Origin: a candidate division WS6 bacterium GW2011_GWF2_39_15
Lineage (GTDB): Bacteria; Patescibacteriota; Dojkabacteria; SC72
Direction of reading: 5' to 3'
Length of the DNA: 64,000 nt
Assembly (NCBI GenBank): GCA_000993565.1
Contig: LBWK01000001.1
Location: 428,208-492,207, forward strand
Below are positions 1 through 54,147 of this stretch, piece by piece. Every line of letters begins with the position of its first letter. Within the stretch, counting starts at the first letter, position 1. Below the pieces are notes generated by a model. That model made no database searches and was not told where the DNA came from. It saw only the letters and a program-made list of their open reading frames with translations. A program made the position numbers and the translations under genes.

Positions 1-473
1 TTAAGACCACGTTTAGGAATCCTAAGTTTTCTGGTTAGATAGTATATCTTAAGGTTCCTGTTTAGATCACACTCCACTTCAAATACATTACTTCTACTAT
101 GAAACCCTGAGATAATAATCAATTTTTCAGGATTAATGAGTTTTTTTGCAATGGCGTGAAGAAGAAATGTATTACCAAGCGAATATCCCAGTACAGCATA
201 CTTTTTAAAGCCAAAAGAGTTAATGAAATCCGAAATAAACTCTACATACGAGCCAAAGCTTTTATCTTCGAGCTTCTGCTTGGTTTTTCCTCCCCATCCT
301 GGAAGATCCGGTCTAATGATTTTTATCGGATAGTCTTTTAAAAGTTCGACGAGACCATCGAAGGCCATATTAGAAGCTGTCCATGGTGGAATCAAAAATA
401 GTGGATACCCCTCCCCGCTCTCTTTGTAATAAACATTAATCCCCGCAATTTCTTTGTTAAAGTAATCTTTCAT
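1..473 (-). CDS. alpha/beta-hydrolase fold protein (C-terminal part off-window)
   Basis: Open frame from ATG at 473 to window edge (not in ORF track because no in-window stop); translation MKDYFNKEIAGINVYY...GYSLGN... contains GxSxG nucleophile elbow (GYSLG) typical of alpha/beta hydrolases. Confidence 0.5.
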   Translation of the reverse strand, partial: MKDYFNKEIAGINVYYKESGEGYPLFLIPPWTASNMAFDGLVELLKDYPIKIIRPDLPGWGGKTKQKLEDKSFGSYVEFISDFINSFGFKKYAVLGYSLGNTFLLHAIAKKLINPEKLIIISGFHSRSNVFEVECDLNRNLKIYYLTRKLRIPKRGL

Positions 474-518
474 TGCTCTTCAGTATACCATAAATGATGT
501 GCATACCTAGAAGCAAAT

Positions 519-528
519 TGCTATAATT
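519..528 (+). promoter_or_regulatory. extended -10 element (TGcTATAAT) upstream of ATP-grasp gene
   Basis: tgctataat 27 nt upstream of ATG at 555; divergent intergenic region shared with hydrolase gene. Confidence 0.3.
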
Positions 529-554
529 AAAAGCATAATTTAAGCCCATACGGT

Positions 555-1496
555 ATGAAATATTTAGTTCTGGATAAGAGACAGAGGATTGAGATATCTA
601 GTAAATACGGTTATGTACTAACCAGAATTGCAGAGGAACTTGAGAAAAAGAACCTCGACTATGTTATCGCCTACAATGATGAGATTACGATTGATTTTAT
701 TAACAATGCGATCACAATTACTGTTCAAGGACAGAATATAACAGACTTCACTCATATAATGTTCAGAGGAATGAGACTAGATAAGCCTTTAGAGTATGAA
801 ACCAGAAGACTGATTGTAGACTATATCGAGGAATACAATACATCAAACCCGGGAAAAAAGATTGAAATACAGAACTCTGAAGCGATCAAAGCCCTAATCT
901 TCTACGATAAGATATGGATTTCAAAAATATGTACCCAGAATAATATTCCAATGATAGATACACACTATAAGGCAAACGGCAGATACAATGTGGAACAGCT
1001 ACCTTTCGAATACCCCGCAATTATCAAACAATATGCGGGAGAAAACGATTTAAGAGTAATTGACGGTAAAGAGAAAATCAAAAAGAATGTCTATCTCTTA
1101 GAGTCTCCTAATGATTACCAACAGGAGTTTCTGAAAGACAAAAACTTGGATGAATACATAGTTCAGGAGTTCATCCCAACCGGTGAAGACTTTAGAGTCT
1201 TTGTTAAAAAAGGATCCGCTATTGCGGGATTTAGCAGAAAGTCCACAAAGACCTTCTTAACTGTGAATTCAGGTGAATATACTAAACTGGATATGAATAA
1301 AAGAAAGGATTTGAAAGAGTTCTCAGAACGGGTAGCACAGGTATTTAATGCAGACTTCATAGCTGTCGACGTAATGATGAAAAATGAAAAACCGGTACTA
1401 CAGGAAATCAGTTTTAATCCCGGATTTAAAGCATTTGAGACAAAAACCGATGGTGAGTTTATTAACCTTGCAAAAGAAATAATCGAGGCTTTTTAA
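555..1496 (+). CDS. ATP-grasp family ligase (RimK/glutathione-synthetase-like)
   Basis: 313 aa; C-terminal half shows ATP-grasp pattern: K in AIIKQYAGEN, EYIVQEFIP, DFRVFVKKG..AGFSRK, ADFIAVDVM..PVLQEISFNPG. Confidence 0.55.
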   Translation: MKYLVLDKRQRIEISSKYGYVLTRIAEELEKKNLDYVIAYNDEITIDFINNAITITVQGQNITDFTHIMFRGMRLDKPLEYETRRLIVDYIEEYNTSNPGKKIEIQNSEAIKALIFYDKIWISKICTQNNIPMIDTHYKANGRYNVEQLPFEYPAIIKQYAGENDLRVIDGKEKIKKNVYLLESPNDYQQEFLKDKNLDEYIVQEFIPTGEDFRVFVKKGSAIAGFSRKSTKTFLTVNSGEYTKLDMNKRKDLKEFSERVAQVFNADFIAVDVMMKNEKPVLQEISFNPGFKAFETKTDGEFINLAKEIIEAF

Positions 1497-2650
1497 ATAC
1501 CCAATTTCTTAAATACTCTTTCAAACTCTGCTGGATTGGGTGTGAGTTTAGGCTTTGGTATTAAACCGTCATCAACCCACTCCACCTGTTTAAGACTTAT
1601 CTTTCCGCTGTAGAGCTTCTCATACAATGAGGAGTCTTTCTCAATTGCTTTCCTTACCTTTCTATAACCTCTAAAGTACATAACATCTTTATAATATAAC
1701 CCCGGCAGAGAAGTATCGCCCAGCCCCCTTTTTACTCTATACGTAAAATCAAAGGCTAAGTTTCTTGCAAGAAAAGATGTTAAAGCATTATAAAGCTCTC
1801 TAAAACTCGTTTGTTCCGCCCAATATAACATCCATGTAAAACAAGCCTTTCTACGAAGAGCATCATATGTTAGTACATTCATATACTCCTCATTATAGGT
1901 GGCTAAACCCTCTTCGATATCCTGGGAATCTGGAAGGTTCGGCTTATACAGAACTGGAATACCCGAAACAAGACCATTGTATGATCTAAACACGTGCGTC
2001 CCTATTTCATGCACAATGGATTTTCTTAAATCCTGTGGACTGCGAGAGATGTCAGGAGCAATCAAAACCTCTTTCCTTTTAATACCAACTTTCATAGCTT
2101 CATCGGCAATTCTTCCGGATTTAGCAACCGTCCAGTCAGTAAGGCCTAGCTCTTTTAAAAATTCCTTCATTATCCTTTCTATCTCATCATATCCAAATTC
2201 CCTGGCTTCATTCTTTTTCTGTACCAGCTTGTAGCTTTTAATCAATCCTCTAAGGACTCTCGAGGAGTTTTTAAAAAGCTTTTCCGATGGCTTGCCGAAT
2301 CTCCTTCTTGATATCTCCGTAATCTTCTCATTATGTCCGACAGCATTTAACATATCATTCACTTCGGATTTTGAATCAATCAATTTGAGATAGAAATCCG
2401 ATATTCTAGGATCAACGTCCTCAACGCTAGAGACGGAGCTTAGTTCCCTGAGGATCTTATCATTTATATTCTTCACAGGGTTATATTTAAATACAGGGTT
2501 ATAGTCGTCTGAAGCGAAAAACTTCTTCTGTTCCTCTTTCAGGTTTACAGGTGTAAAAACGTATGAAGTGGGTAATCTTAGAATATCCAGCTTCTCTTCC
2601 AACTCGTCCTGCGTAATCTGTTTTTTACCTAAACGATTAAAAATAAACAA
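1493..2650 (-). CDS. DUF1704 / MATCAP-like zinc metallopeptidase (HExxxH + EEGLA motif)
   Basis: 385 aa; SIVHEIGTHVF (HExxxH) and EEGLATYNE matching the QEGLA-motif family; stop codon overlaps stop of convergent ATP-grasp gene (ttaa at 1493-1496). Confidence 0.6.
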   Translation of the reverse strand: MFIFNRLGKKQITQDELEEKLDILRLPTSYVFTPVNLKEEQKKFFASDDYNPVFKYNPVKNINDKILRELSSVSSVEDVDPRISDFYLKLIDSKSEVNDMLNAVGHNEKITEISRRRFGKPSEKLFKNSSRVLRGLIKSYKLVQKKNEAREFGYDEIERIMKEFLKELGLTDWTVAKSGRIADEAMKVGIKRKEVLIAPDISRSPQDLRKSIVHEIGTHVFRSYNGLVSGIPVLYKPNLPDSQDIEEGLATYNEEYMNVLTYDALRRKACFTWMLYWAEQTSFRELYNALTSFLARNLAFDFTYRVKRGLGDTSLPGLYYKDVMYFRGYRKVRKAIEKDSSLYEKLYSGKISLKQVEWVDDGLIPKPKLTPNPAEFERVFKKLGI

Positions 2651-2741
2651 GGAGAGAATATAAGAAGTTAACTTTATATTTTATCACAAATCTCTTTTAA
2701 CCCGAAATCACCTCAGGCAAGCCCTATATCGACACCCTATA

Positions 2742-3755
2742 TTAACTTGATATCTCTTTGGTAAATACACGCTCACCGCTGGCGATTAGTTCAAGTGCCA
2801 TACCCGTTCCTTTTGCAACACAAAACATTGGCTCATCTGCCACATGAGCGGGTACTCCTGTTGCTCTAGAAAACAGCTTGTCCAGGTTTCTCAAAAGTGA
2901 TGTTCCGCCACTCATTACCATCCCTCTATCAATGATATCTGCAGCAAGTTCGGGAGGAGTTTTTTCAAGCACCTCTTTTATTGCACCGATAATCTTGGAT
3001 AGAGGAAGTTTCAGGGCTTCAGCAACTTCATTCGAATCTATTTTTATGGATTTAGGCATACCCCCTGCCACATCCCGACCTTTTATCTCCATCTCCTTAG
3101 GGTTCTCAAGTTTAATAGCGGACCCGATCTTCATTTTAATCTGCTCCGCACTCTGCTCTCCAATTAAAATCCCCCTCTTCCTTCTCATATATGCAATTAT
3201 AGACTCATTAAGGGCATCCCCGGCCACTCTCAAAGAGTTAAACTCTACAATCCCATCCAACGATATCACTGCAATTTCAGCCGTTCCGCCCCCGAGATTT
3301 ACAATCATGTTTCCGGAGGATGTTTCAATAGGCAATCCAGCACCAAGTGCAGCAAGAAGCGGTTCAGGAAGAAGGTTTATTTTCCTTGCCCCTGCTTCTG
3401 TAGCCGCTTTAAGCACAGCCCTTTCCTCTACCGATGTTATTCCTGCAGGAACACTTATCATAACTTCAGGCTTAAAGAGTTTGGAATATCCTAATGCCTT
3501 ATTCAGAAAGTATCTCAATAATGCTTCCGTGACTCTTGAATCAGCTATTACACCGCTTCGAAGAGGTCTTTTAGCAACAATATTATCTGGAGTCTTACCA
3601 ATCATCTCCTTTGCCTGCTGACCGACTGCAATAACTGTGAACTTGTTTACATCAATTGCTACAACGGTTGGTTCCATGAGGACGATACCTTCTCCCTCAA
3701 CAAAAACTATTGAGTTAGCGGTACCCAGATCAATTCCAACTTTCTTTCCAAACAT
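2742..3755 (-). CDS. mreB: rod shape-determining protein MreB (actin-like ATPase)
   Basis: 337 aa; GIDLGTANS N-terminus, MSGGTSLLRNLDKL, typical MreB length and motifs. Confidence 0.9.
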   Translation of the reverse strand: MFGKKVGIDLGTANSIVFVEGEGIVLMEPTVVAIDVNKFTVIAVGQQAKEMIGKTPDNIVAKRPLRSGVIADSRVTEALLRYFLNKALGYSKLFKPEVMISVPAGITSVEERAVLKAATEAGARKINLLPEPLLAALGAGLPIETSSGNMIVNLGGGTAEIAVISLDGIVEFNSLRVAGDALNESIIAYMRRKRGILIGEQSAEQIKMKIGSAIKLENPKEMEIKGRDVAGGMPKSIKIDSNEVAEALKLPLSKIIGAIKEVLEKTPPELAADIIDRGMVMSGGTSLLRNLDKLFSRATGVPAHVADEPMFCVAKGTGMALELIASGERVFTKEISS

Positions 3756-3853
3756 AGTTGATTATATGATATTAAACAGAAACTACCAATACACTCTATT
3801 TACAGTAAAAATAGAGCGATGTATAATAGCCTTATAGTATTAAATATGTAAAT

Positions 3854-4345
3854 ATGCCAAACCTAGAGAGAGAAAAATGTAAAGAAAAAGGGGTTTCAGA
3901 TCTTGCTTTTCAATTTGTTTGGGTTATAAAAACTGCTGCTACAGAAGAACTCGCTCTGCAGATTTGGGCAGAGGTTCCTGGGTTTAAGGGAGTAAACACA
4001 TATTTTGAAATGGGTTTTAACAGCTTCGGTTCTATAAGTCTGAGACAGGAGAATCATCGTTCACAGACATCAGATTGGGAAAAAAACCTAAAGGATAGAC
4101 CCTTGAATATAGGCAGAAGAGGAGATTACCTCTTAGAGTATGGACACGACACCCCATGTTCAGATGACAAGGAAGGACTAGCAGTTCTTAGGCAGGCATA
4201 TGAGCTCGTCAAAGACAATGCCGATATTGAAAGCCTCAATGAACTGGAAAGAAACCATATTAAAAGACTTCTTACAAGAATAGATGAGACATTGCAGGAA
4301 TATGAACACCCACACCCTGTTAGTAAAGTTAAGATTCCTACTTAG
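3854..4345 (+). CDS. hypothetical protein
   Basis: 163-aa ORF, only plus-strand gene in a minus-strand block; no recognisable motif. Confidence 0.35.
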   Translation: MPNLEREKCKEKGVSDLAFQFVWVIKTAATEELALQIWAEVPGFKGVNTYFEMGFNSFGSISLRQENHRSQTSDWEKNLKDRPLNIGRRGDYLLEYGHDTPCSDDKEGLAVLRQAYELVKDNADIESLNELERNHIKRLLTRIDETLQEYEHPHPVSKVKIPT

Positions 4346-4356
4346 AGCTTGAATAA

Positions 4357-5139
4357 CTATTTATACGACATAATTGCCAGCTCTTTTTGGTTATCCATGA
4401 CTTTCTGCTCAATATCAGCAAACAATGGAACAAGACACGCTACCCCCGCTACATCATCAGCTATTGACCTTTTGACCATGATCTTCGAATGAACATAATC
4501 AGCGGCAATAGACTCCATTAAATACTTCCGGGCATAATCAGATGTACGATAATACTTTCCTCGGTTCTCATCTTCCCCATTTTTCTCGAATTGCTTGTTA
4601 ACGGCATGCTCAAACATCTGGTTTGTAATTCCCACATAACTTCTCTCATTATTTCTTACCATACTTATAATTGTATTGTAATCGCTAGCTCTTTGAGGAT
4701 TCCCAAAATATTCCAACGAGCTGACTACATTCCCTCGAAAGTTATTATTTAAAGCCATTTGAAAAATATACTCACCAATATTATGAGAAAACTCTGAAAT
4801 ATCTACACTGCTGTCTCCTGGAAGAGTGAGCAACTCATGATCCATTATTGGTGCCACGACTTCAATCGGTACCCCTATCTGTCCTAAAGCCTTGGCTATA
4901 GCAAATTCCTCTTCTAACTCAAAGAGAAATTTCCCCGCTTTTTTAACAACGCTGCCACCGTTTAGATTTCTATAATGAAAATCTTTTAAATCAGCTATTA
5001 TTCTTCTCTCACCTGTAGAATCATAATAATGTCTTAAACAGATAGGGATATATATCCTTACGGGTTTATCAGTTAAAAGTGAATGATAAATATAAGACTC
5101 AAATAAAGCCTTTTTGGAAGGAGTGAACTCCATATTCAA
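4357..5139 (-). CDS. hypothetical protein (possibly C-terminal part of a split gene)
   Basis: 260-aa ORF; 73-nt gap and frame change separate it from upstream ORF 5213..5698. Confidence 0.4.
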   Translation of the reverse strand: MNMEFTPSKKALFESYIYHSLLTDKPVRIYIPICLRHYYDSTGERRIIADLKDFHYRNLNGGSVVKKAGKFLFELEEEFAIAKALGQIGVPIEVVAPIMDHELLTLPGDSSVDISEFSHNIGEYIFQMALNNNFRGNVVSSLEYFGNPQRASDYNTIISMVRNNERSYVGITNQMFEHAVNKQFEKNGEDENRGKYYRTSDYARKYLMESIAADYVHSKIMVKRSIADDVAGVACLVPLFADIEQKVMDNQKELAIMSYK

Positions 5140-5892: not shown

Positions 5893-7407
5893 TTATTCTT
5901 TCTCAATCAGCTTATTTATCCCTACCATGCTCTGAAGCTTCTCAAGAGTTTGTACAACAACCTTTCTCGCCTTTTCTGTCCCTGAAATAAGTATATCCTT
6001 CGCTTCATCCGGTCTTTCTTCATAGTATTTTCTCTTCTCTCGTATAGGCTCAAGGAAGGTGTTAAGGGCAGCAAAAAGCTTCTCTTTGACTTCTATATCC
6101 CCTACTTTCCCTTGTGTGTATCTTTCTTTAAGATCGTTAATCTCGTCCTTATTTGTATTAAACGCATCATGATATATAAAGACGGGATTTCCTTCTACAG
6201 TGCCTTTATCACTGGCCTTAATCCTATTAGGATCGGTATACATAGACATCACTTTCTTCTTTAAAGTTTCTTCATCATCAGAGAGAAGTATGGCATTATG
6301 ACCGCTCTTACTCATTTTCTCTTTACCATCCGTACCAACCAGCCTCGCAACCCTTCCAACTCGACCCTCTGGCATTACAAACAGATTTCCATATGCCTTA
6401 TTAAAGTCTTTTGCTATCTCCCTTGCCTGCTCAATCACAGGAAGCTGGTCTTCTCCAACCGGCACTAAACTGGCGTTAAACTGGAGAATATCTGCAGCCT
6501 GTAGAATCGGGTAACTTATAAAGCCTAAACTCGGGTCTAACTTTTTATACCTCACCTCATCCTTTACAGATGGATTTCTCAACGCTCTTGAGTGCTTTAC
6601 CATATTAAGGAAGAAACTATACAAAACATGCGTTTCTGGGATACCTGATTCAAGGTAAATTGTAGACTTGTTAGGATCTATTCCTACAGCCAGATTATCA
6701 AGGAAGACATCATATACATTCTGGTTTATCAACTCTGATTTATCAAAGTAGTTGGCATATGCGTGATTATTTGCCAAAAGAATATATGTTTCGTATTCAT
6801 CCTGCAATTTAACCCTGTTCTCCAATGTTCCAACGTAATGTCCTATATGCAGTTTCCCGCTAGGAGTATCACCTGTGAGAATTCTTTTTTTACTTACAAC
6901 CCCGGCCTGTCTCTTGAGGTTAGGCTCTGTAATTTCAGCCACTTTATACTTACCAAGCACTTTAAGCAGGTCCTCAACTTTGATTTTAAGGCCGTAACCC
7001 TCCCTGCCAATTCCACATATAACCTTCTCGTTATCCATAACCATACTATCAATATAGATCTTTACCGGAAACTTTTCCTGAAGCTCTCCGAGTAGTGCTG
7101 GTGAGACTAAACCTGTTTCAAATCCTAATTTTTCTAAGTCATTTTCCTCTGCAAAGTTAAGACTCCTGCTCCCGCTTAATTTCTTCACCTCCTGAGTTCT
7201 TACATTCCGATCGTCCCTTCTAAGAATAACAATGTACTCATCCCTCTCGTTCTTAAAGAAAAGTGTTGACATACCATCTCCGTACGTCATAACTGTAACC
7301 CTCACGAGTTCATCAACCGACCTGTTTTTTGCGGCTGTCTGATCTACCTCCTCATACTTTATTCCAGTACTATTCAGTTTTTCTACTATTCTTTTATATG
7401 TATCCAT
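5893..7407 (-). CDS. trpS: tryptophanyl-tRNA synthetase with ~170-aa N-terminal extension
   Basis: Class I motifs PSGKLHIGHYVG (HIGH) and KMSKS; core ~335 aa typical of TrpRS; cognate tRNA-Trp adjacent; T-box leader upstream. N-terminal domain of unknown type (possibly editing/YbaK-like, unverified). Confidence 0.8.
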   Translation of the reverse strand: MDTYKRIVEKLNSTGIKYEEVDQTAAKNRSVDELVRVTVMTYGDGMSTLFFKNERDEYIVILRRDDRNVRTQEVKKLSGSRSLNFAEENDLEKLGFETGLVSPALLGELQEKFPVKIYIDSMVMDNEKVICGIGREGYGLKIKVEDLLKVLGKYKVAEITEPNLKRQAGVVSKKRILTGDTPSGKLHIGHYVGTLENRVKLQDEYETYILLANNHAYANYFDKSELINQNVYDVFLDNLAVGIDPNKSTIYLESGIPETHVLYSFFLNMVKHSRALRNPSVKDEVRYKKLDPSLGFISYPILQAADILQFNASLVPVGEDQLPVIEQAREIAKDFNKAYGNLFVMPEGRVGRVARLVGTDGKEKMSKSGHNAILLSDDEETLKKKVMSMYTDPNRIKASDKGTVEGNPVFIYHDAFNTNKDEINDLKERYTQGKVGDIEVKEKLFAALNTFLEPIREKRKYYEERPDEAKDILISGTEKARKVVVQTLEKLQSMVGINKLIEKE

Positions 7408-7419
7408 CACTTATGGTAT

Positions 7420-47730: not shown

Positions 47731-47849
47731 AAGTCCTGGCAATGACCTATCTTCCCAATTCCTTTCGAAATAAGTATTTTAGGCGCTGGAGCATTTTACT
47801 TCTGAGTTCGGGATGGGATCAGGTAGTTCCACTCCGCTACAATTGCCAG
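47731..47849 (-). rRNA. rrf: 5S rRNA
   Basis: rc reads TGCCTGGCAATTGTAGCGGAGTGGAACTACCTGATCCCATCCCGAACTCAGAAGT...; helix I ends pair. Confidence 0.8.
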
Positions 47850-48359
47850 GCATAAGCAATCAGATTCTCTAATTACTCATGCCTGACAACCTCTATTACT
47901 AGAGATATCAGGACTTTAAATTCATAAAGAGCTATTAAGAGTGTTTACACACTCAAAACTGAATAGAAATTTGAAGCATTTCAAAAAGTTTTTTGATCTA
48001 TTAGTACACCTTGGCTCAATACATTGCTGTACTTACACCTAGTGCCTATCAACGTAGTAGTCTACTACGGATCTTCCGTTGCGCGAACGCAACAAGCAAA
48101 TCTAATCTTGGGACAGGCTTCGCACTTATATGCTTTCAGTGCTTATCCCTAAATAACATAGCTACCCAGCAATGCTCTTGGTAGAACAGCTGGTACACCA
48201 GAGGTTTACCTCGCCCCGATCCTTTCGTACTAGGGGCCACTTCCCTCAAATTTGCTGCGCCCATACCGGATAGAGACCGACCTGGCTCACGACGGTCTGA
48301 ACCCAGCTCACGTGCCACTTTAATGGACGAACAGTCCAACCCTTGGGAGCTTATCCACT

Positions 48360-48395
<36 letters not shown>

Positions 48396-48803
48396 GGTGC
48401 CGTCAATATGAACTATCGGGCACCACCAGCCTGTTATCCCCGGGGTAACTTATATCCGTTAAACAATGGCGATTCCACATTCTGCCAAAGGGTCACTTAA
48501 ACCTGCTTTCGCAACTGCTCGGGATGTCTCCCTCACAGTAAAGCCACCTTATGCTTATGTACTCTTCATCCGATTTCCATCCGGATTGAGGTGACCTTTG
48601 TACGCTTGCGTTACTCTTTTGCAAGCAACCGCCCCAGTCAAACTGCCCGCCGTGCACTGTTTCCTTGCCGGGTAACGGCAAAGGTGAGAAATTAAACGCC
48701 AATAGGGTGGTATTACACTGGTGACTCCCCAAATCCTGACGAATCTGGTTCAAAGTCTCCCACCTATGCTCTACAACTAGAGCCTAATTTCAATGCAAAG
48801 CTG

Positions 48804-48834
<31 letters not shown>

Positions 48835-48960
48835 GTACGGGTAGGCCGCATCTTCACAGCCATTTCAATTTCGCCGAGCACGCTGTCGAGACAGTGAGAG
48901 AGTCGTTACGCCTTTCATGCAAGCCACTAATTAAGTGGCGAGGTATTACGCTACCTTAGG

Positions 48961-49745
48961 CATTCCTGTTACTTAGATCTAAGTATCTATTTACTTAGAT
49001 GACCTAATTTCTTAGGCGGATATACTTTTGTATATCTCTCTACATTACTGTAGAGGTCGGACTATATCTTCTTCCACATATTTTTGTAAATGGAAGTCTA
49101 ACGTTTAGCCTCTGAGGATTCTTGCAACTAATTCTTTCTTTTCCCACTTTTTACCTTTTCCCATCTGATTCATCTCATATGAATAATCTAACAACTTCAG
49201 CATTCCTTTCGGACTAAGATGTTGCTTATTCTTCATCATCACTATTGCATCTCTAAAAATAGAGAATGCTTTTAGTTTTGTTTTCAACGGATATGTTTCG
49301 AAGAATGGGATAACTCTTTCATAACACGGATTAATTCCGGATATTTGGTATGTATAAACACTATATGGGGAAGTTTTTCGATGTATACTTCCGCAACCAA
49401 ATACTTTCATAATCTCTTCTAGAAACCATTTATTCTTTTCATGTTGATAAACATAAAAAGCTGGTTCTATTCTAAAACCGTATTTAACATTAATACGATT
49501 TTTAATATTAAGACAGAAACTCCCTTCTCCATCTACAAATCCTGAGATAAACCATTTAGAACTTTCGGTATTAGGGATATTAGTTACAAATCTTTCCTGC
49601 TGATTGTCCAAAAACATGAAGTTTTTACTTAATAAATTAAGTATCCATGCCGTTTAGGATGTCCCAGCATACAGTTAGATTTTACAACGGCCCGATATCT
49701 GGTAGCAAAACCAAGTAATAATTATCATTACTACTTAGTAGATAT
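48961..49745 (-). mobile_element. group I intron in 23S rRNA (domain IV, helix 69 3' side)
   Basis: Exon junction reconstructed by alignment to E. coli: ...ACTATAACGGT | intron | CCTAAGGTAGCG...; upstream exon ends in U, intron ends in G (plus c48961); AT-rich insert containing HE ORF. Confidence 0.6.
49105..49617 (-). CDS. LAGLIDADG homing endonuclease (single-motif, intron-encoded)
   Basis: 170 aa; ISGFVDGEGSF LAGLIDADG motif; lies entirely within 23S intron. Confidence 0.8.
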   Translation of the reverse strand: MFLDNQQERFVTNIPNTESSKWFISGFVDGEGSFCLNIKNRINVKYGFRIEPAFYVYQHEKNKWFLEEIMKVFGCGSIHRKTSPYSVYTYQISGINPCYERVIPFFETYPLKTKLKAFSIFRDAIVMMKNKQHLSPKGMLKLLDYSYEMNQMGKGKKWEKKELVARILRG

Positions 49746-51115
49746 TTATCTACCACCGTTATAGTTACAGCCGCCATTGACCAGGGCTTCAGTCATCCGC
49801 TTTTCAACAATTGACACACCGAAGTGTGGCAAGAGTCGATGACAAACTTCCTTAACCTTCTGGCATTGGGCAGGCGTCAGCACTTATACATCTTCTTACG
49901 AATTTGCAAGCGCCTGTAGTTTTGGTAACTAGTCGCTCTCTCCTATTCTGTGCCACTGTAATCACTGCCTGAAAAAATCTGACAGTGTACAGTCCCCCTT
50001 CTCGCTAACTTACGGGGTGAATTTGCCGAATTCCTTAACAACGCATCACTCGTACGTCTTAGTGCATTTACACCAATCTACCGGTGTCGGTTTGCGGTAC
50101 GATTACCATAAATATTGCTCAAGACCGAAGTCTTAAGCGCTAGAAGCTTTTCCTGGAAGATTAATCTGACAGATCGGATTCCTTGCGGTCACCTTTCCAT
50201 AACAGTTCGTGTTCATCCCGCAAGCGGGAAACGTTTTCGTGGATTTACCTGCGAAAACTAACTTGCTGTTTAGACCCCAATCCTTAAGGGGCCTGCCTTT
50301 TCAATCCTCTCACTCCATTGCTAAATATAGTAGTACAGGAATATTAACCTGTTGTCCGTCACCTACGCCTTTCGGCCTCGGCTTAGGATCGACTTACCCA
50401 TGGGCGACTGACGTAGCCATGGAAACCTTAGATATTCGACGAGCAGGGTTTTCACCTGCTTTGCGCTACTCATCCATGCATTCTCACTTCCATACGCTCC
50501 AGCAACTCCTTACGGGCTGCCTTCACTGCTTTTTTTAGCCTGCTAAGGCCAACATGTATGGAACGCTCCTCTACCAAATGTATTAACCGAAGTTAATACA
50601 CATTCGCAGCTTCGGAATTTACCTTTAGCCCCGTTATATCTTAAGCGCAGAATCTCTAGACTAGTAAGCTTTTACGCACTTTTTAAAGGATGGCTGCCTC
50701 TGAGCCAACCTCCTAGCTGTCTGAGAAACTCCACTTCCTTTGCCACTGAGGTAAATTTAGGGTCCTTATCTGACGATCTGGGCTGTTGCCCTTTCGAACG
50801 TATTAGCTTAGCCCAATAGTTCTAACTGCCACAATGTACATTCCGGTATTCGGAGTTTTACAGAACATGGTACTCTTTCGAGCCCAAGATTCTATAAGTG
50901 CTCTACCCCCAGAATTTAAATTGCAACGCTAGCCCAAAAGCTATTTCGAGGAGAACCAGCTATTACCAGGTTCGTTTGGCATATTACCGCTAACCACGTG
51001 TCATCACATAATTTTGTAACATTAAAGTGTTCGAGCCTCCATCCCACTTTCGTGGGACTTCACTCTGCACGAGGTTAGATCACCTGGATTCGGGTCCAGT
51101 GCATACGACTGAATT

Positions 51116-51146
<31 letters not shown>

Positions 51147-51264
51147 CCACCGTTTCCGGTTTAACCTTGCCGTACACAACTGACTCGCATGGTCATTCTT
51201 CAATAGGCACGCCATTATCCTAGCAAGCTAGGACTCTGACTGTTTGTAAGCATATGGTTTCAGT

Positions 51265-51308
<44 letters not shown>

Positions 51309-51991
51309 TCGGAACTTGTTCACTATCGGTCGCAAAAAAGTATTTAGTCTTACCAAGTGGTTTTGGCAGATTCCCACAGATTTTCACTTATTCCGTGGTA
51401 CTTAAGAATACTAAAAGAAAGACACATACCTTTAATGTACACAGCTTTCATGTTCTATGGCCGACCTTTCCAGATCTATTCCATTAGATATGTATTTTGT
51501 AACTTTCCGACCAAATTGCTGTTTGATCTATTAGTATCTTACAACTCCAATATTGCACGAACAGCAACCTACGAGTTTGTCTTTCCAATCGTCGCAACGC
51601 GACTCATGAATTAACGCCCTCTTACACAATATTGGTTTAGACTCTTCCCGTTTCGCTCGCCACTACTAAGGGAATAAACTTATGTTCTTTTTTCCTGTTG
51701 GTACTGAGAGGTTTCACTTCCCAACGTTCTCTCCTCTACAGATATGTATTCTCTGTAGGGTAACTGGGTATGACCCCAGCTGGATTACTCCATTCGGAAA
51801 TCTCCGGGTTATAACGATTGTTTGACATCTCCCCGAAGCATATCGCAGTCTACTACGTCCTTCATCGACTTTTTGCGCCAAGGCATCCACCATATGCCCG
51901 TAGCTTTACTTTTTGAAATGGTTCATTTCTATTCAGTTTTTAAAGTGCAAACACTATATTTTCGTAATCTATTTCTAGACTACATATCTTG

Positions 51992-52280: not shown

Positions 52281-53822
<1,542 letters not shown>

Positions 53823-54147
53823 GAAAAATTGCTTACAAATGACATTTGCATGCCATTTGACTATCGTCGCAAATTGATAGATTTATGAATTGTTGGACTA
53901 TTGCACTTTGCAAAAAAATTGCACTCAACAAGAAGTCCAAGATATTTATTACTTGACTTCCTGCCACTCTTCAATTTTCAACGAGCAAAATACATCGCTG
54001 TTATACCACTCGTTAATCATCATGTCAAAATCTTTTTTTAGGAATTCGTTAGAGTATATTTTCTAAGAGGAATCCTGCTCCCACAGCTTCCCGAACTTGT
54101 GTGAAAGGATTATATCAGAGCCATATAGGATATGCAAGAGAATTTCT

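Follow-up and report, generated by a model that had tools for sequence, protein, structure and literature searches.

The general idea of a peptide ligase working against a peptidase is already established. Iyer and colleagues reportedly defined the ATPgrasp_ST and 7TM_transglut families in a 2009 article in Mol Biosyst, where peptide systems of ATP-grasp enzymes and peptidases are said to have been predicted, and the MATCAP/TMCP enzymes were recognised as tubulin detyrosinases and deglutamylases only in 2022-2023. In the tubulin cycle, ATP-grasp ligases of the TTL and TTLL type are opposed by the C-terminal carboxypeptidases MATCAP and TMCP1/2 (7z5g; PMC10499314). In the RimK-RimB system, a RimK-fold ATP-grasp ligase poly-glutamylates S6 and a peptidase removes what the ligase has added (PMC11957791, PMC4741518), while in RloABC of Pseudomonas aeruginosa a peptidase opposes the products of a ligase and a 7TM protein, with cell-shape and envelope phenotypes (PMC12239564). 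We describe here a related gene module from the candidate division WS6 bacterium GW2011_GWF2_39_15, found in a 64,000-nucleotide stretch of its DNA (the window; GenBank assembly GCA_000993565.1, contig LBWK01000001.1, positions 428,208 to 492,207), in which the genes of a MATCAP-family peptidase of 385 amino acids (aa) and an ATP-grasp ligase of 313 aa meet tail to tail. An earlier reading of the window by a model (the original prediction) had read this pair as suggesting a ligation-and-removal cycle. We find that the two genes belong to a larger module that is not unique to the window, being nearly universal in Candidatus Dojkabacteria, and that connects a family of enzymes only lately discovered in eukaryotes with a ligase system conserved in prokaryotes.

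A MATCAP-family carboxypeptidase

The 385-aa protein matches PF08014 (formerly DUF1704, now MATCAP) over residues 43-371 with 114.3 bits against a gathering score of 27 (E=8e-33), so that the DUF1704 assignment of the original prediction is borne out by profile search as well as by motifs and predicted fold. Both motifs it had named, of the HExxxH and EEGLA type, are present as HEIGTH at residues 214-219 (window 1994-2011) and EEGLA at 246-250 (1901-1915), and are followed by KRGLGDTS at 307-314 (1709-1732) and K321-D322 (1685-1690). Across 55 diverse homologues, down to 23% identity, H214, E215, H219, E247, G248, K307, G309, K321, Y325 and G328 are invariant. The metal site of TMCP1/2 consists of HExxxH and a third-ligand Glu within EEG (PMC10499314), and HEIGTH with E246-E247-G248 matches that definition.

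A profile built from 40 peptidase orthologues reaches human MATCAP (KIAA0895L, 7z5g) at E=2e-22, with HE(I/V)GTH, EEGLA, (R/K)RG..DTS.PG and KD..Y aligned. The AlphaFold2 model (pLDDT 92.2, pTM 0.90) likewise has the MATCAP 7z5g chains as its top Foldseek matches (E=4e-11; TM 0.61 by query, 0.69 by target), M32 carboxypeptidases following weakly and far behind; the proposed kinship of DUF1704 and MATCAP, for which such a comparison of models had been suggested, is upheld. No transmembrane or hydrophobic segment was found in the protein, which carries a net charge of +11 (+9 to +24 among its Dojkabacteria orthologues). Sequence and model together mark it as a predicted cytoplasmic zinc carboxypeptidase of the MATCAP family that is catalytically intact. 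Its likeness to the tubulin enzymes lies in the HExxxH and EEG site, the K-R-G..D-T-S..K-D..Y block and the fold, at about 18-20% identity to MATCAP, and the logic of an ATP-grasp ligase opposed by a C-terminal carboxypeptidase would be common to both; the differences are that there is no tubulin substrate here, that the ligases are not of the TTL family, and that the bacterial protein is without microtubule-binding extensions.

The protein shares its Pfam family, its motifs and an adjacent ATP-grasp amidoligase with the proteobacterial TIGR02421 group ('flavohemoglobin expression-modulating QEGLA motif protein'). It is not a QEGLA member, however, scoring 131.5 bits against a cut-off of 338.65 and carrying EEGLA, and it differs also in lacking an N-terminal extension of about 270-300 aa, in the type of its ligase and in having no N-formylglutamate amidohydrolase (FGase) neighbour. 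The sole QEGLA-motif member among its nearest representatives (P0263) lies on a 1.5-kb contig, whose context is uninformative. The remark that the pair seems uncharacterised in bacteria of this type agrees with our search of the accessible literature on prokaryotic MATCAP/DUF1704/QEGLA members, which found no paper on them; Iyer et al. 2009 may have noted related neighbourhoods.

We also note two proteins from a representative protein library in which a C-terminal MATCAP domain with intact HExxxH and EEGLA is carried on a STAND-NTPase and TPR architecture, P0321 (1216 aa), which additionally bears an N-terminal TIR domain, and P0351 (1265 aa). This NLR-like architecture suggests that a MATCAP peptidase can act as an effector. 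A defence role for the present module, which these fusions had prompted us to consider, was set aside: neither the peptidase nor the 313-aa ligase matched the PADLOC-DB 2.0 defence models, nor did the RloC-like and 7TM proteins, and the models gave only weak TIR matches for P0321 and P0351.

A RimK-fold ligase without the RimK hallmarks

The 313-aa ligase falls within Pfam RimK (PF08443, 45 bits against a gathering score of 21, E=1.2e-11), with scores of 51.4 bits against a cut-off of 143.4 for TIGR00768 (rimK_fam), 15.6 against 331 for the S6-Glu ligase equivalog and 45 against 275 for NCBIfam LysX; the TTL family (PF03133) gave no match at E<=0.01. Foldseek places its AlphaFold2 model (pLDDT 92.5) closest to ArgX, RimK and LysX (E~1e-17, TM 0.70-0.78), with the graspetide ligases next, and these nearest structural relatives all act on peptide or protein carboxylates. 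The ATP-site residues K119, K158, D212/R214, D272 and E284 are invariant in an alignment of 33 orthologues, the hinge Q-E-F (from Q204) is also kept, and the mean column identity of the family is 60%.

The hallmarks of RimK, which we define by alignment to RimK structures as E-x-N and F-R-S-N..R-G-G, have been altered. The Mg-binding E-x-N has become E-I-S (residues 283-290, window 1401-1424, Q-E-I-S-F-N), S286 being nearly invariant, and F-R-S-N has become F-L-T-V (residues 234-242, window 1254-1280, F-L-T-V-N-S-G-E-Y), part of a replacement of F-R-S-N..R-G-G by F-(M/L)-T-V..K-G-E-Y that runs through all 33 orthologues. Both motifs are present in a canonical RimK encoded beside one of the peptidase fusions described below (L087), and a deep-branching orthologue of the ligase in L090 has kept E-V-N but not R-x-N. 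The original description as a RimK-like ATP-grasp enzyme thus stands for domain and fold and falls for the RimK family cut-off and the two hallmark motifs, and its parallel with the tubulin-tyrosine ligases is not sustained. By these comparisons the protein is neither a RimK orthologue nor a TTL; it appears to be a RimK-fold amidoligase with a remodelled acceptor site, or possibly a pseudo-enzyme. What it shares with RimK-RimB is a RimK-fold ATP-grasp enzyme and a peptidase that would remove the ligase's additions, the peptidase here being a zinc exopeptidase of another fold; no connection with S6 was observed.

An operon of four ligases that is conserved in the Dojkabacteria

Most of the module lies outside the window. 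Scaffold L006 of the WS6 bacterium, 405 kb long, runs past the left edge of the window and bears there, in window orientation, the genes of a 218-aa 7TM_transglut protein, a 495-aa ATPgrasp_ST enzyme with a retropepsin domain, and two further ATP-grasp enzymes of 324 and 557 aa; between the last of these and the window ligase, on the opposite strand, stand a GT4 glycosyltransferase gene and the alpha/beta hydrolase gene whose beginning the window contains. The 495-aa enzyme (L006 17129-18616) scores 293 bits against a cut-off of 314.2 for TIGR02291 ('alpha-L-glutamate ligase-like') and matches PF14397 at E=1e-66. Its C-terminus is retropepsin-like (RloA3, E=4e-9; D-T-G present; PF05618 with 24.7 bits, under the 27-bit gathering score), and no signal peptide was found on the protein, the retropepsin region being a C-terminal domain of a cytoplasmic ligase. 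The 218-aa protein matches PF14402 with 54 bits and NF052267 with 43.9 bits against 900, at profile positions 313-508 only. The 324-aa and 557-aa enzymes match the G-domain region of cyanophycin synthetase (CphA1) at E~1e-64, a likeness that extends the comparison to N-acetylglutaminylglutamine synthetase and GshAB and that suggests, by analogy, primer-dependent peptide elongation; they differ from cyanophycin synthetase in lacking its Mur-ligase-like M domain and in scoring 220 against 850-877 bits. E-x-N is retained in all three of these other ligases, which together with the 313-aa protein make four predicted amidoligases of three types.

The elements that recall RloABC are the RloC-like ATP-grasp enzyme, which scores somewhat under the TIGR02291 cut-off, the 7TM_transglut partner and the retropepsin-type peptidase (PMC12239564). 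In P. aeruginosa, however, RloA is a secreted, stand-alone protease and RloB joins an inactive transglutaminase domain to seven transmembrane helices, whereas the Dojkabacteria retropepsin is fused to a cytoplasmic ligase and the 7TM protein consists of the 7TM half only; by sequence, of the three features that define RloABC, the transglutaminase domain and the secreted protease are therefore wanting here. The Dojkabacteria module adds three further ATP-grasp enzymes and the MATCAP-type carboxypeptidase to the Rlo elements. RloB is 96% proteobacterial (PMC12239564), which puts the Patescibacterial version outside the described range.

We scanned one genome per GTDB species with a 12-sequence peptidase alignment, which yielded 334 loci; the best 80 of these, 66 from Dojkabacteria and 14 from archaea, were analysed, with neighbours called by open reading frame (ORF) calling and phmmer searches with the proteins of L006. 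The Dojkabacteria share a near-constant map, <UvrA <PEGA (>TrpRS) >MreB >MATCAP <RimK-like <CphA-like-557 <CphA-like-324 <ATPgrasp_ST+retropepsin <7TM. The RimK-like gene converges on the peptidase gene in 55 of the 58 species-representative loci with enough flank, and in L065 a different ATP-grasp gene occupies the convergent position, so that an adjoining convergent ATP-grasp gene of some kind is found in 56 of the 58; conservation of the pairing in related genomes had been suggested as a check, and the pairing is conserved. All five operon genes are present in 32 of the 37 loci with enough flank, the gaps among the ligase genes are typically 1-4 bp, and the -4 overlap of the stop codons seen in the window recurs in 21 loci among Dojkabacteria L001-L072. 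The 313-aa ligase is thus the ancestral last gene of a five-gene 7TM/ATP-grasp operon that converges on mreB and the MATCAP gene, and the two genes of the original prediction, far from forming a system of their own, are the last gene of this operon and a gene for a peptidase whose usual place is behind mreB.

In the lineage of the window the last ligase gene has, to judge from the gene maps, been split from its operon by insertion of the GT4 and hydrolase genes. This pair is confined to the window's sub-lineage (L001/L002 and L006-L009), for which reason we regard the hydrolase as an insertion and not a component, and the promoter region that it was said to share with the ligase gene as a by-product of that insertion. 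The hydrolase had been counted into the locus as divergent from the ligase gene, which is correct (an 81-bp spacer separates them); as a third component of the system it was rejected, since about 55 other Dojkabacteria loci are without it and have only 1-4 bp between the 313-aa ligase gene and its ATP-grasp neighbour. The nearest sister species (L001/L007, 72% identity) has a gene for a Wzy_C (O-antigen-ligase-like) protein inserted between mreB and the peptidase gene (3743-4954 in locus coordinates), and the Wzy_C and GT4 insertions together suggest that the locus tends to gather envelope-related genes.

The ligase-peptidase link beyond synteny

Adjacency within one phylum is weak evidence of a shared function, and we consider the following observations to be of greater weight. 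In the deep lineage of L090, L091 and L068, whose peptidases are 33-35% identical to that of the window, the flanks differ and mreB is gone, and the MATCAP gene, the RimK-like ligase gene, both other ATP-grasp genes, the ATPgrasp_ST gene and the 7TM gene are still clustered. Among the 1673 MATCAP-family members in a representative library of 1.84 billion proteins are several fusions of 778-814 aa with ATPgrasp_ST at the N-terminus and MATCAP at the C-terminus, peptidase motifs intact; the one fusion cluster that carries source names comes from a Patescibacteria group bacterium. One such fusion is followed by the canonical RimK already mentioned (L087), and ahead of another, in L088, comes a PKD-7TM_transglut protein.

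Further associations come from the Proteobacteria, whose gene context we took from a plasmid collection. The gene of a Photobacterium TIGR02421 QEGLA protein (459.9 bits) overlaps that of a GshB-type ATP-grasp enzyme, Aminobacter has the order FGase, QEGLA and a GshB-type ATP-grasp enzyme annotated as 'glutathione synthetase', and Sinorhizobium meliloti pSymB has the same start, FGase then QEGLA. The functional link between DUF1704 peptidases and ATP-grasp enzymes is accordingly supported, at the level of sequence, by the conservation of the pairing, the rearranged loci, the fusions and the proteobacterial pairs, and three independent associations of ligase and peptidase are unlikely to have arisen by chance. 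Prokaryotic homologues of MATCAP appear to have been wired repeatedly to ATP-grasp peptide ligases, the RloC/7TM pair included.

As separate observations, the proteobacterial QEGLA proteins are 620-660 aa long, and the N-terminal extension that accounts for about 270-300 aa of this has no Pfam match (L093 5400-9144, L094 4059-7053, L092 5352-8092). Those of Aminobacter and Photobacterium are operonic with the GshB-type enzyme (PRK12458), and the rhizobial QEGLA genes come after FGase.

A proposed role

We suggest that the locus encodes a module, reminiscent of both Rlo and Rim, which assembles and trims a short acidic peptide or tag; we would put the probability of this reading at about one half. 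The gene identities, motifs, folds, conservation and fusions are shown by the analysis, whereas the acidic substrate, the order of action and the antagonism of ligases and peptidase are inferred. At the expense of ATP, the cytoplasmic ATP-grasp ligases would join amino acids one after another to a carboxylate and so produce a short peptide or poly-amino-acid chain, acidic (rich in Glu and Asp) and either free or built on a primer, with the 313-aa ligase either acting last or serving a separate acceptor. The retropepsin domain would make internal cuts in this chain, the basic MATCAP-like enzyme would strip residues singly from the C-terminus, thereby setting the length of the chain or recycling it, and the 7TM protein would couple the process to the membrane. 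The MATCAP-type exopeptidase would thus have been added to the retropepsin in this lineage and would replace it in other Patescibacteria.

We propose an acidic chain because the partner ligases fall in 'alpha-L-glutamate ligase-like' families, because the Dojkabacteria peptidases are uniformly basic, because RloA cuts Glu-rich sequences and deletion of rloB or rloC suppresses the rloA phenotype (PMC12239564), and because the TMCPs of the MATCAP family, the Tetrahymena homologue included, are deglutamylases (PMC10499314). The assembly of an acidic peptide by the ligases, and its shortening from the C-terminal end by the MATCAP-like enzyme, form a hypothesis that can be tested. The RloC/7TM products of Pseudomonas have a part in its osmotic tolerance, its resistance to antibiotics and its cell shape (PMC12239564). 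The module may point to a near-universal peptide product in the Dojkabacteria, organisms with a very reduced metabolism; its peptidase is a compact and soluble bacterial protein in which the mechanism of the MATCAP fold could be studied, and prokaryotic roots are suggested for the opposition of ligase and carboxypeptidase on tubulin tails.

Several findings weigh against this reading. The whole block of UvrA, PEGA, mreB, MATCAP and ligase genes is syntenic in the Dojkabacteria, which lessens what can be made of any one adjacency within it, and the ligase and peptidase genes of the window are convergent and hence not co-transcribed. L061 and L063, alone among the 58 loci, have no ATP-grasp gene within 10 kb of the mreB-MATCAP pair. 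The partner of MATCAP in the fusions is of the ATPgrasp_ST/RloC type and not the 313-aa ligase. The 14 archaeal loci (L073-L086, mostly DPANN, from Woesearchaeota, Nanoarchaeia and 'Methanosarcinales' metagenome-assembled genomes), which at 30-35% identity hold the nearest relatives of the peptidase outside Dojkabacteria among the best 80 of the 334 loci, had no ATP-grasp neighbour in searches with Dojkabacteria-ortholog hidden Markov models and Pfam on flanking ORFs; several share the order Dus, M48 peptidase, DUF1704, RNase HII, SMC. The peptidase can thus work without a linked ligase. Finally, the 313-aa ligase, with Ser for the Mg-binding Asn and without the R-x-N acceptor motif, may be inactive or have another chemistry.

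The strongest of the alternatives, which we nevertheless judge unlikely, is a cycle of tagging and erasure at the C-terminus of a specific protein, in which Glu, Tyr or some other residue would be put on by at least one of the ligases and taken off again by the MATCAP-like enzyme, with MreB as the obvious candidate target. RimK, LysX and ArgX, the nearest structures to the 313-aa ligase, all act on protein C-termini, the MATCAP-family enzymes are protein-tail carboxypeptidases (PMC10499314), and Rlo mutants of P. aeruginosa show cell-shape defects (PMC12239564). The peptidase gene has mreB upstream of it at a distance of no more than 200 bp in 44 of 52 loci, with a gap that is usually 0-35 bp (91 bp in the window) and that implies probable co-transcription in most relatives. 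Since L061 and L063 keep mreB with MATCAP in the absence of the ligases, and L090 and L091 keep the ligases with MATCAP in the absence of mreB, the two links are separable, and the module evidently persists without MreB. The MreB C-termini of about 60 loci, moreover, are short and variable (EISS, FNRDFRR, FNKSIT, KGLN) and do not share a terminal residue, aromatic or acidic, so that MreB as the substrate was rejected except as a reading of low probability. Known tagging systems use one ligase and not four, two of the ligases here resemble the cyanophycin, N-acetylglutaminylglutamine and glutathione synthetases, which make free peptides, and the acceptor-binding motif of RimK is missing from the 313-aa ligase, which has no TTL-family match either. 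For comparison with the S6 system, no rpsF was found in the 64-kb window by tblastn with an approximate E. coli S6 query. C-terminal tagging and de-tagging, as originally predicted, is only one possibility; a row of four ligases, among them two that resemble cyanophycin synthetase, is better suited to the stepwise assembly of a peptide.

It is distinctly unlikely, in our view, that peptidase and ligases are uncoupled, the tail-to-tail arrangement being inherited synteny in a compact genome, the DUF1704 protein a general or mreB-linked cytoplasmic carboxypeptidase like those of archaea and the ligase operon unrelated to it. Convergent transcription and the archaeal DUF1704 genes, set among housekeeping genes, are what such a reading would expect, as are L061 and L063, and UvrA, PEGA and TrpRS are conserved in the block with no plausible functional link. 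It does not explain why the cluster survives rearrangement in L090, L091 and L068, why L065 has another ATP-grasp gene in the convergent position, or why MATCAP is fused to ATPgrasp_ST beside RimK or 7TM proteins and QEGLA is paired with GshB-like enzymes in Proteobacteria.

The 313-aa protein might also be a non-catalytic paralogue, a substrate-binding or regulatory subunit, with catalysis left to the other three ATP-grasp enzymes and the peptidase opposing those. We give little credence to this idea, which is compatible with the peptide-assembly model preferred here. The exchange of both hallmarks, the low TIGR00768 score and the retention of E-x-N in the other three ligases speak in its favour, whereas the invariant ATP-binding lysines, hinge Q-E-F, D272 and E284, as well as the strong conservation of the family, argue for a working active site; the E-V-N of the L090 orthologue indicates a recent exchange, which the protein may tolerate.

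More ambitious, and very improbable, is the proposal that the module is a prokaryotic forerunner of the tubulin-tail code, its ligases and MATCAP-type enzyme writing and erasing C-terminal residues on a cytoskeletal protein, for which MreB would be the best candidate. If true, this would mean control of cell shape in an ultra-small bacterium of the candidate phyla radiation (CPR), and a cycle of ligase against MATCAP that was already present in prokaryotes before eukaryotes acquired it; that TMCPs are distributed patchily among eukaryotes (PMC10499314) is consistent with such an acquisition. An amino-group-carrier pathway, with an amino acid ligated onto the C-terminal Glu of a small carrier in the manner of LysX or ArgX and the product freed by the metallopeptidase as by LysK, is hardly credible in spite of the structural matches to ArgX and LysX, as no LysW-like carrier and no LysZ/Y/J-type enzymes were found in about 70 loci and the NCBIfam LysX score is far too low.

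Features of the window

The convergent pair and its neighbours are given in Table 1. The overlap of the two stop codons, as first reported, was confirmed: within TTTAA at 1492-1496 the forward TAA occupies 1494-1496 and the reverse TAA 1493-1495. The ligase and peptidase ORFs are not chance ones: they are long, they match their profiles strongly, and their products have about 100-550 close homologues each; the ligase is 100% identical to UT34_C0001G0436, and the named homologues of the peptidase come from Candidatus Dojkabacteria (WS6, Patescibacteria/CPR). The hydrolase fragment matches Pfam Abhydrolase_1/6 slightly under the gathering score, and its complete form is readable on L006. A strict promoter-consensus scan of the spacer between hydrolase and ligase genes gave no match; the extended -10-like element there could, going by its sequence, serve as a promoter for the ligase gene cut from its ancestral operon.

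Table 1. Features of the window discussed in the text (window coordinates, strand in brackets)
Feature	Position	Basis or remark
Alpha/beta hydrolase, N-terminal fragment, 157 aa of 274 aa	1-473(-), truncated by window edge	GYSLG nucleophile elbow
Divergent spacer hydrolase/ligase, 81 bp	474-554	Extended -10-like TGcTATAAT at 519-527(+), 27 nt before ATG at 555
ATP-grasp amidoligase (predicted), 313 aa	555-1496(+)	RimK/LysX/ArgX fold; Pfam, NCBIfam, predicted structure
Stop-codon overlap, tail-to-tail, 4 nt	1493-1496	Read from sequence
DUF1704/MATCAP-family zinc carboxypeptidase (predicted), 385 aa, TTG start	1493-2650(-)	PF08014, motifs, predicted fold
Spacer mreB to DUF1704, 91 bp	2651-2741(-)	Extended -10-like TGaTAAAAT at 2678-2686(-)
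mreB, 337 aa	2742-3755(-)	PF06723 E=1e-131; directly upstream of peptidase gene, co-directional
ORF, 163 aa	3854-4345(+)	No Pfam or NCBIfam match
ORF, 260 aa	4357-5139(-)	No Pfam or NCBIfam match
ORF, 161 aa	5213-5698(-)	No Pfam or NCBIfam match
Tryptophanyl-tRNA synthetase (TrpRS)	5893-7410(-)	YbaK/ProX-type editing domain PF04073, residues 43-150
5S rRNA	47734-47850	
23S rRNA match, 3936 nt	47980-51915(-)	2925-nt Rfam model
ORF inside 23S match, 170 aa	49105-49617(-)	
ORF inside 23S match	50209-50538(+)	
16S rRNA	52281-53825	

The three ORFs between mreB and the TrpRS gene are seen in the window organism only, apart from a partial occurrence in L010; TrpRS or PEGA stands directly before mreB in most relatives. 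The TrpRS of the window carries an N-terminal aminoacyl-tRNA editing domain, and in most other Dojkabacteria loci the enzyme is 325-349 aa long and without this domain, with a few forms of 490-518 aa. Further along the window lies a ribosomal RNA operon of 16S, two tRNAs, 23S and 5S, in which the excess length of the 23S match over the Rfam model implies one or more insertions amounting to about 1 kb, and two ORFs are found inside this match.

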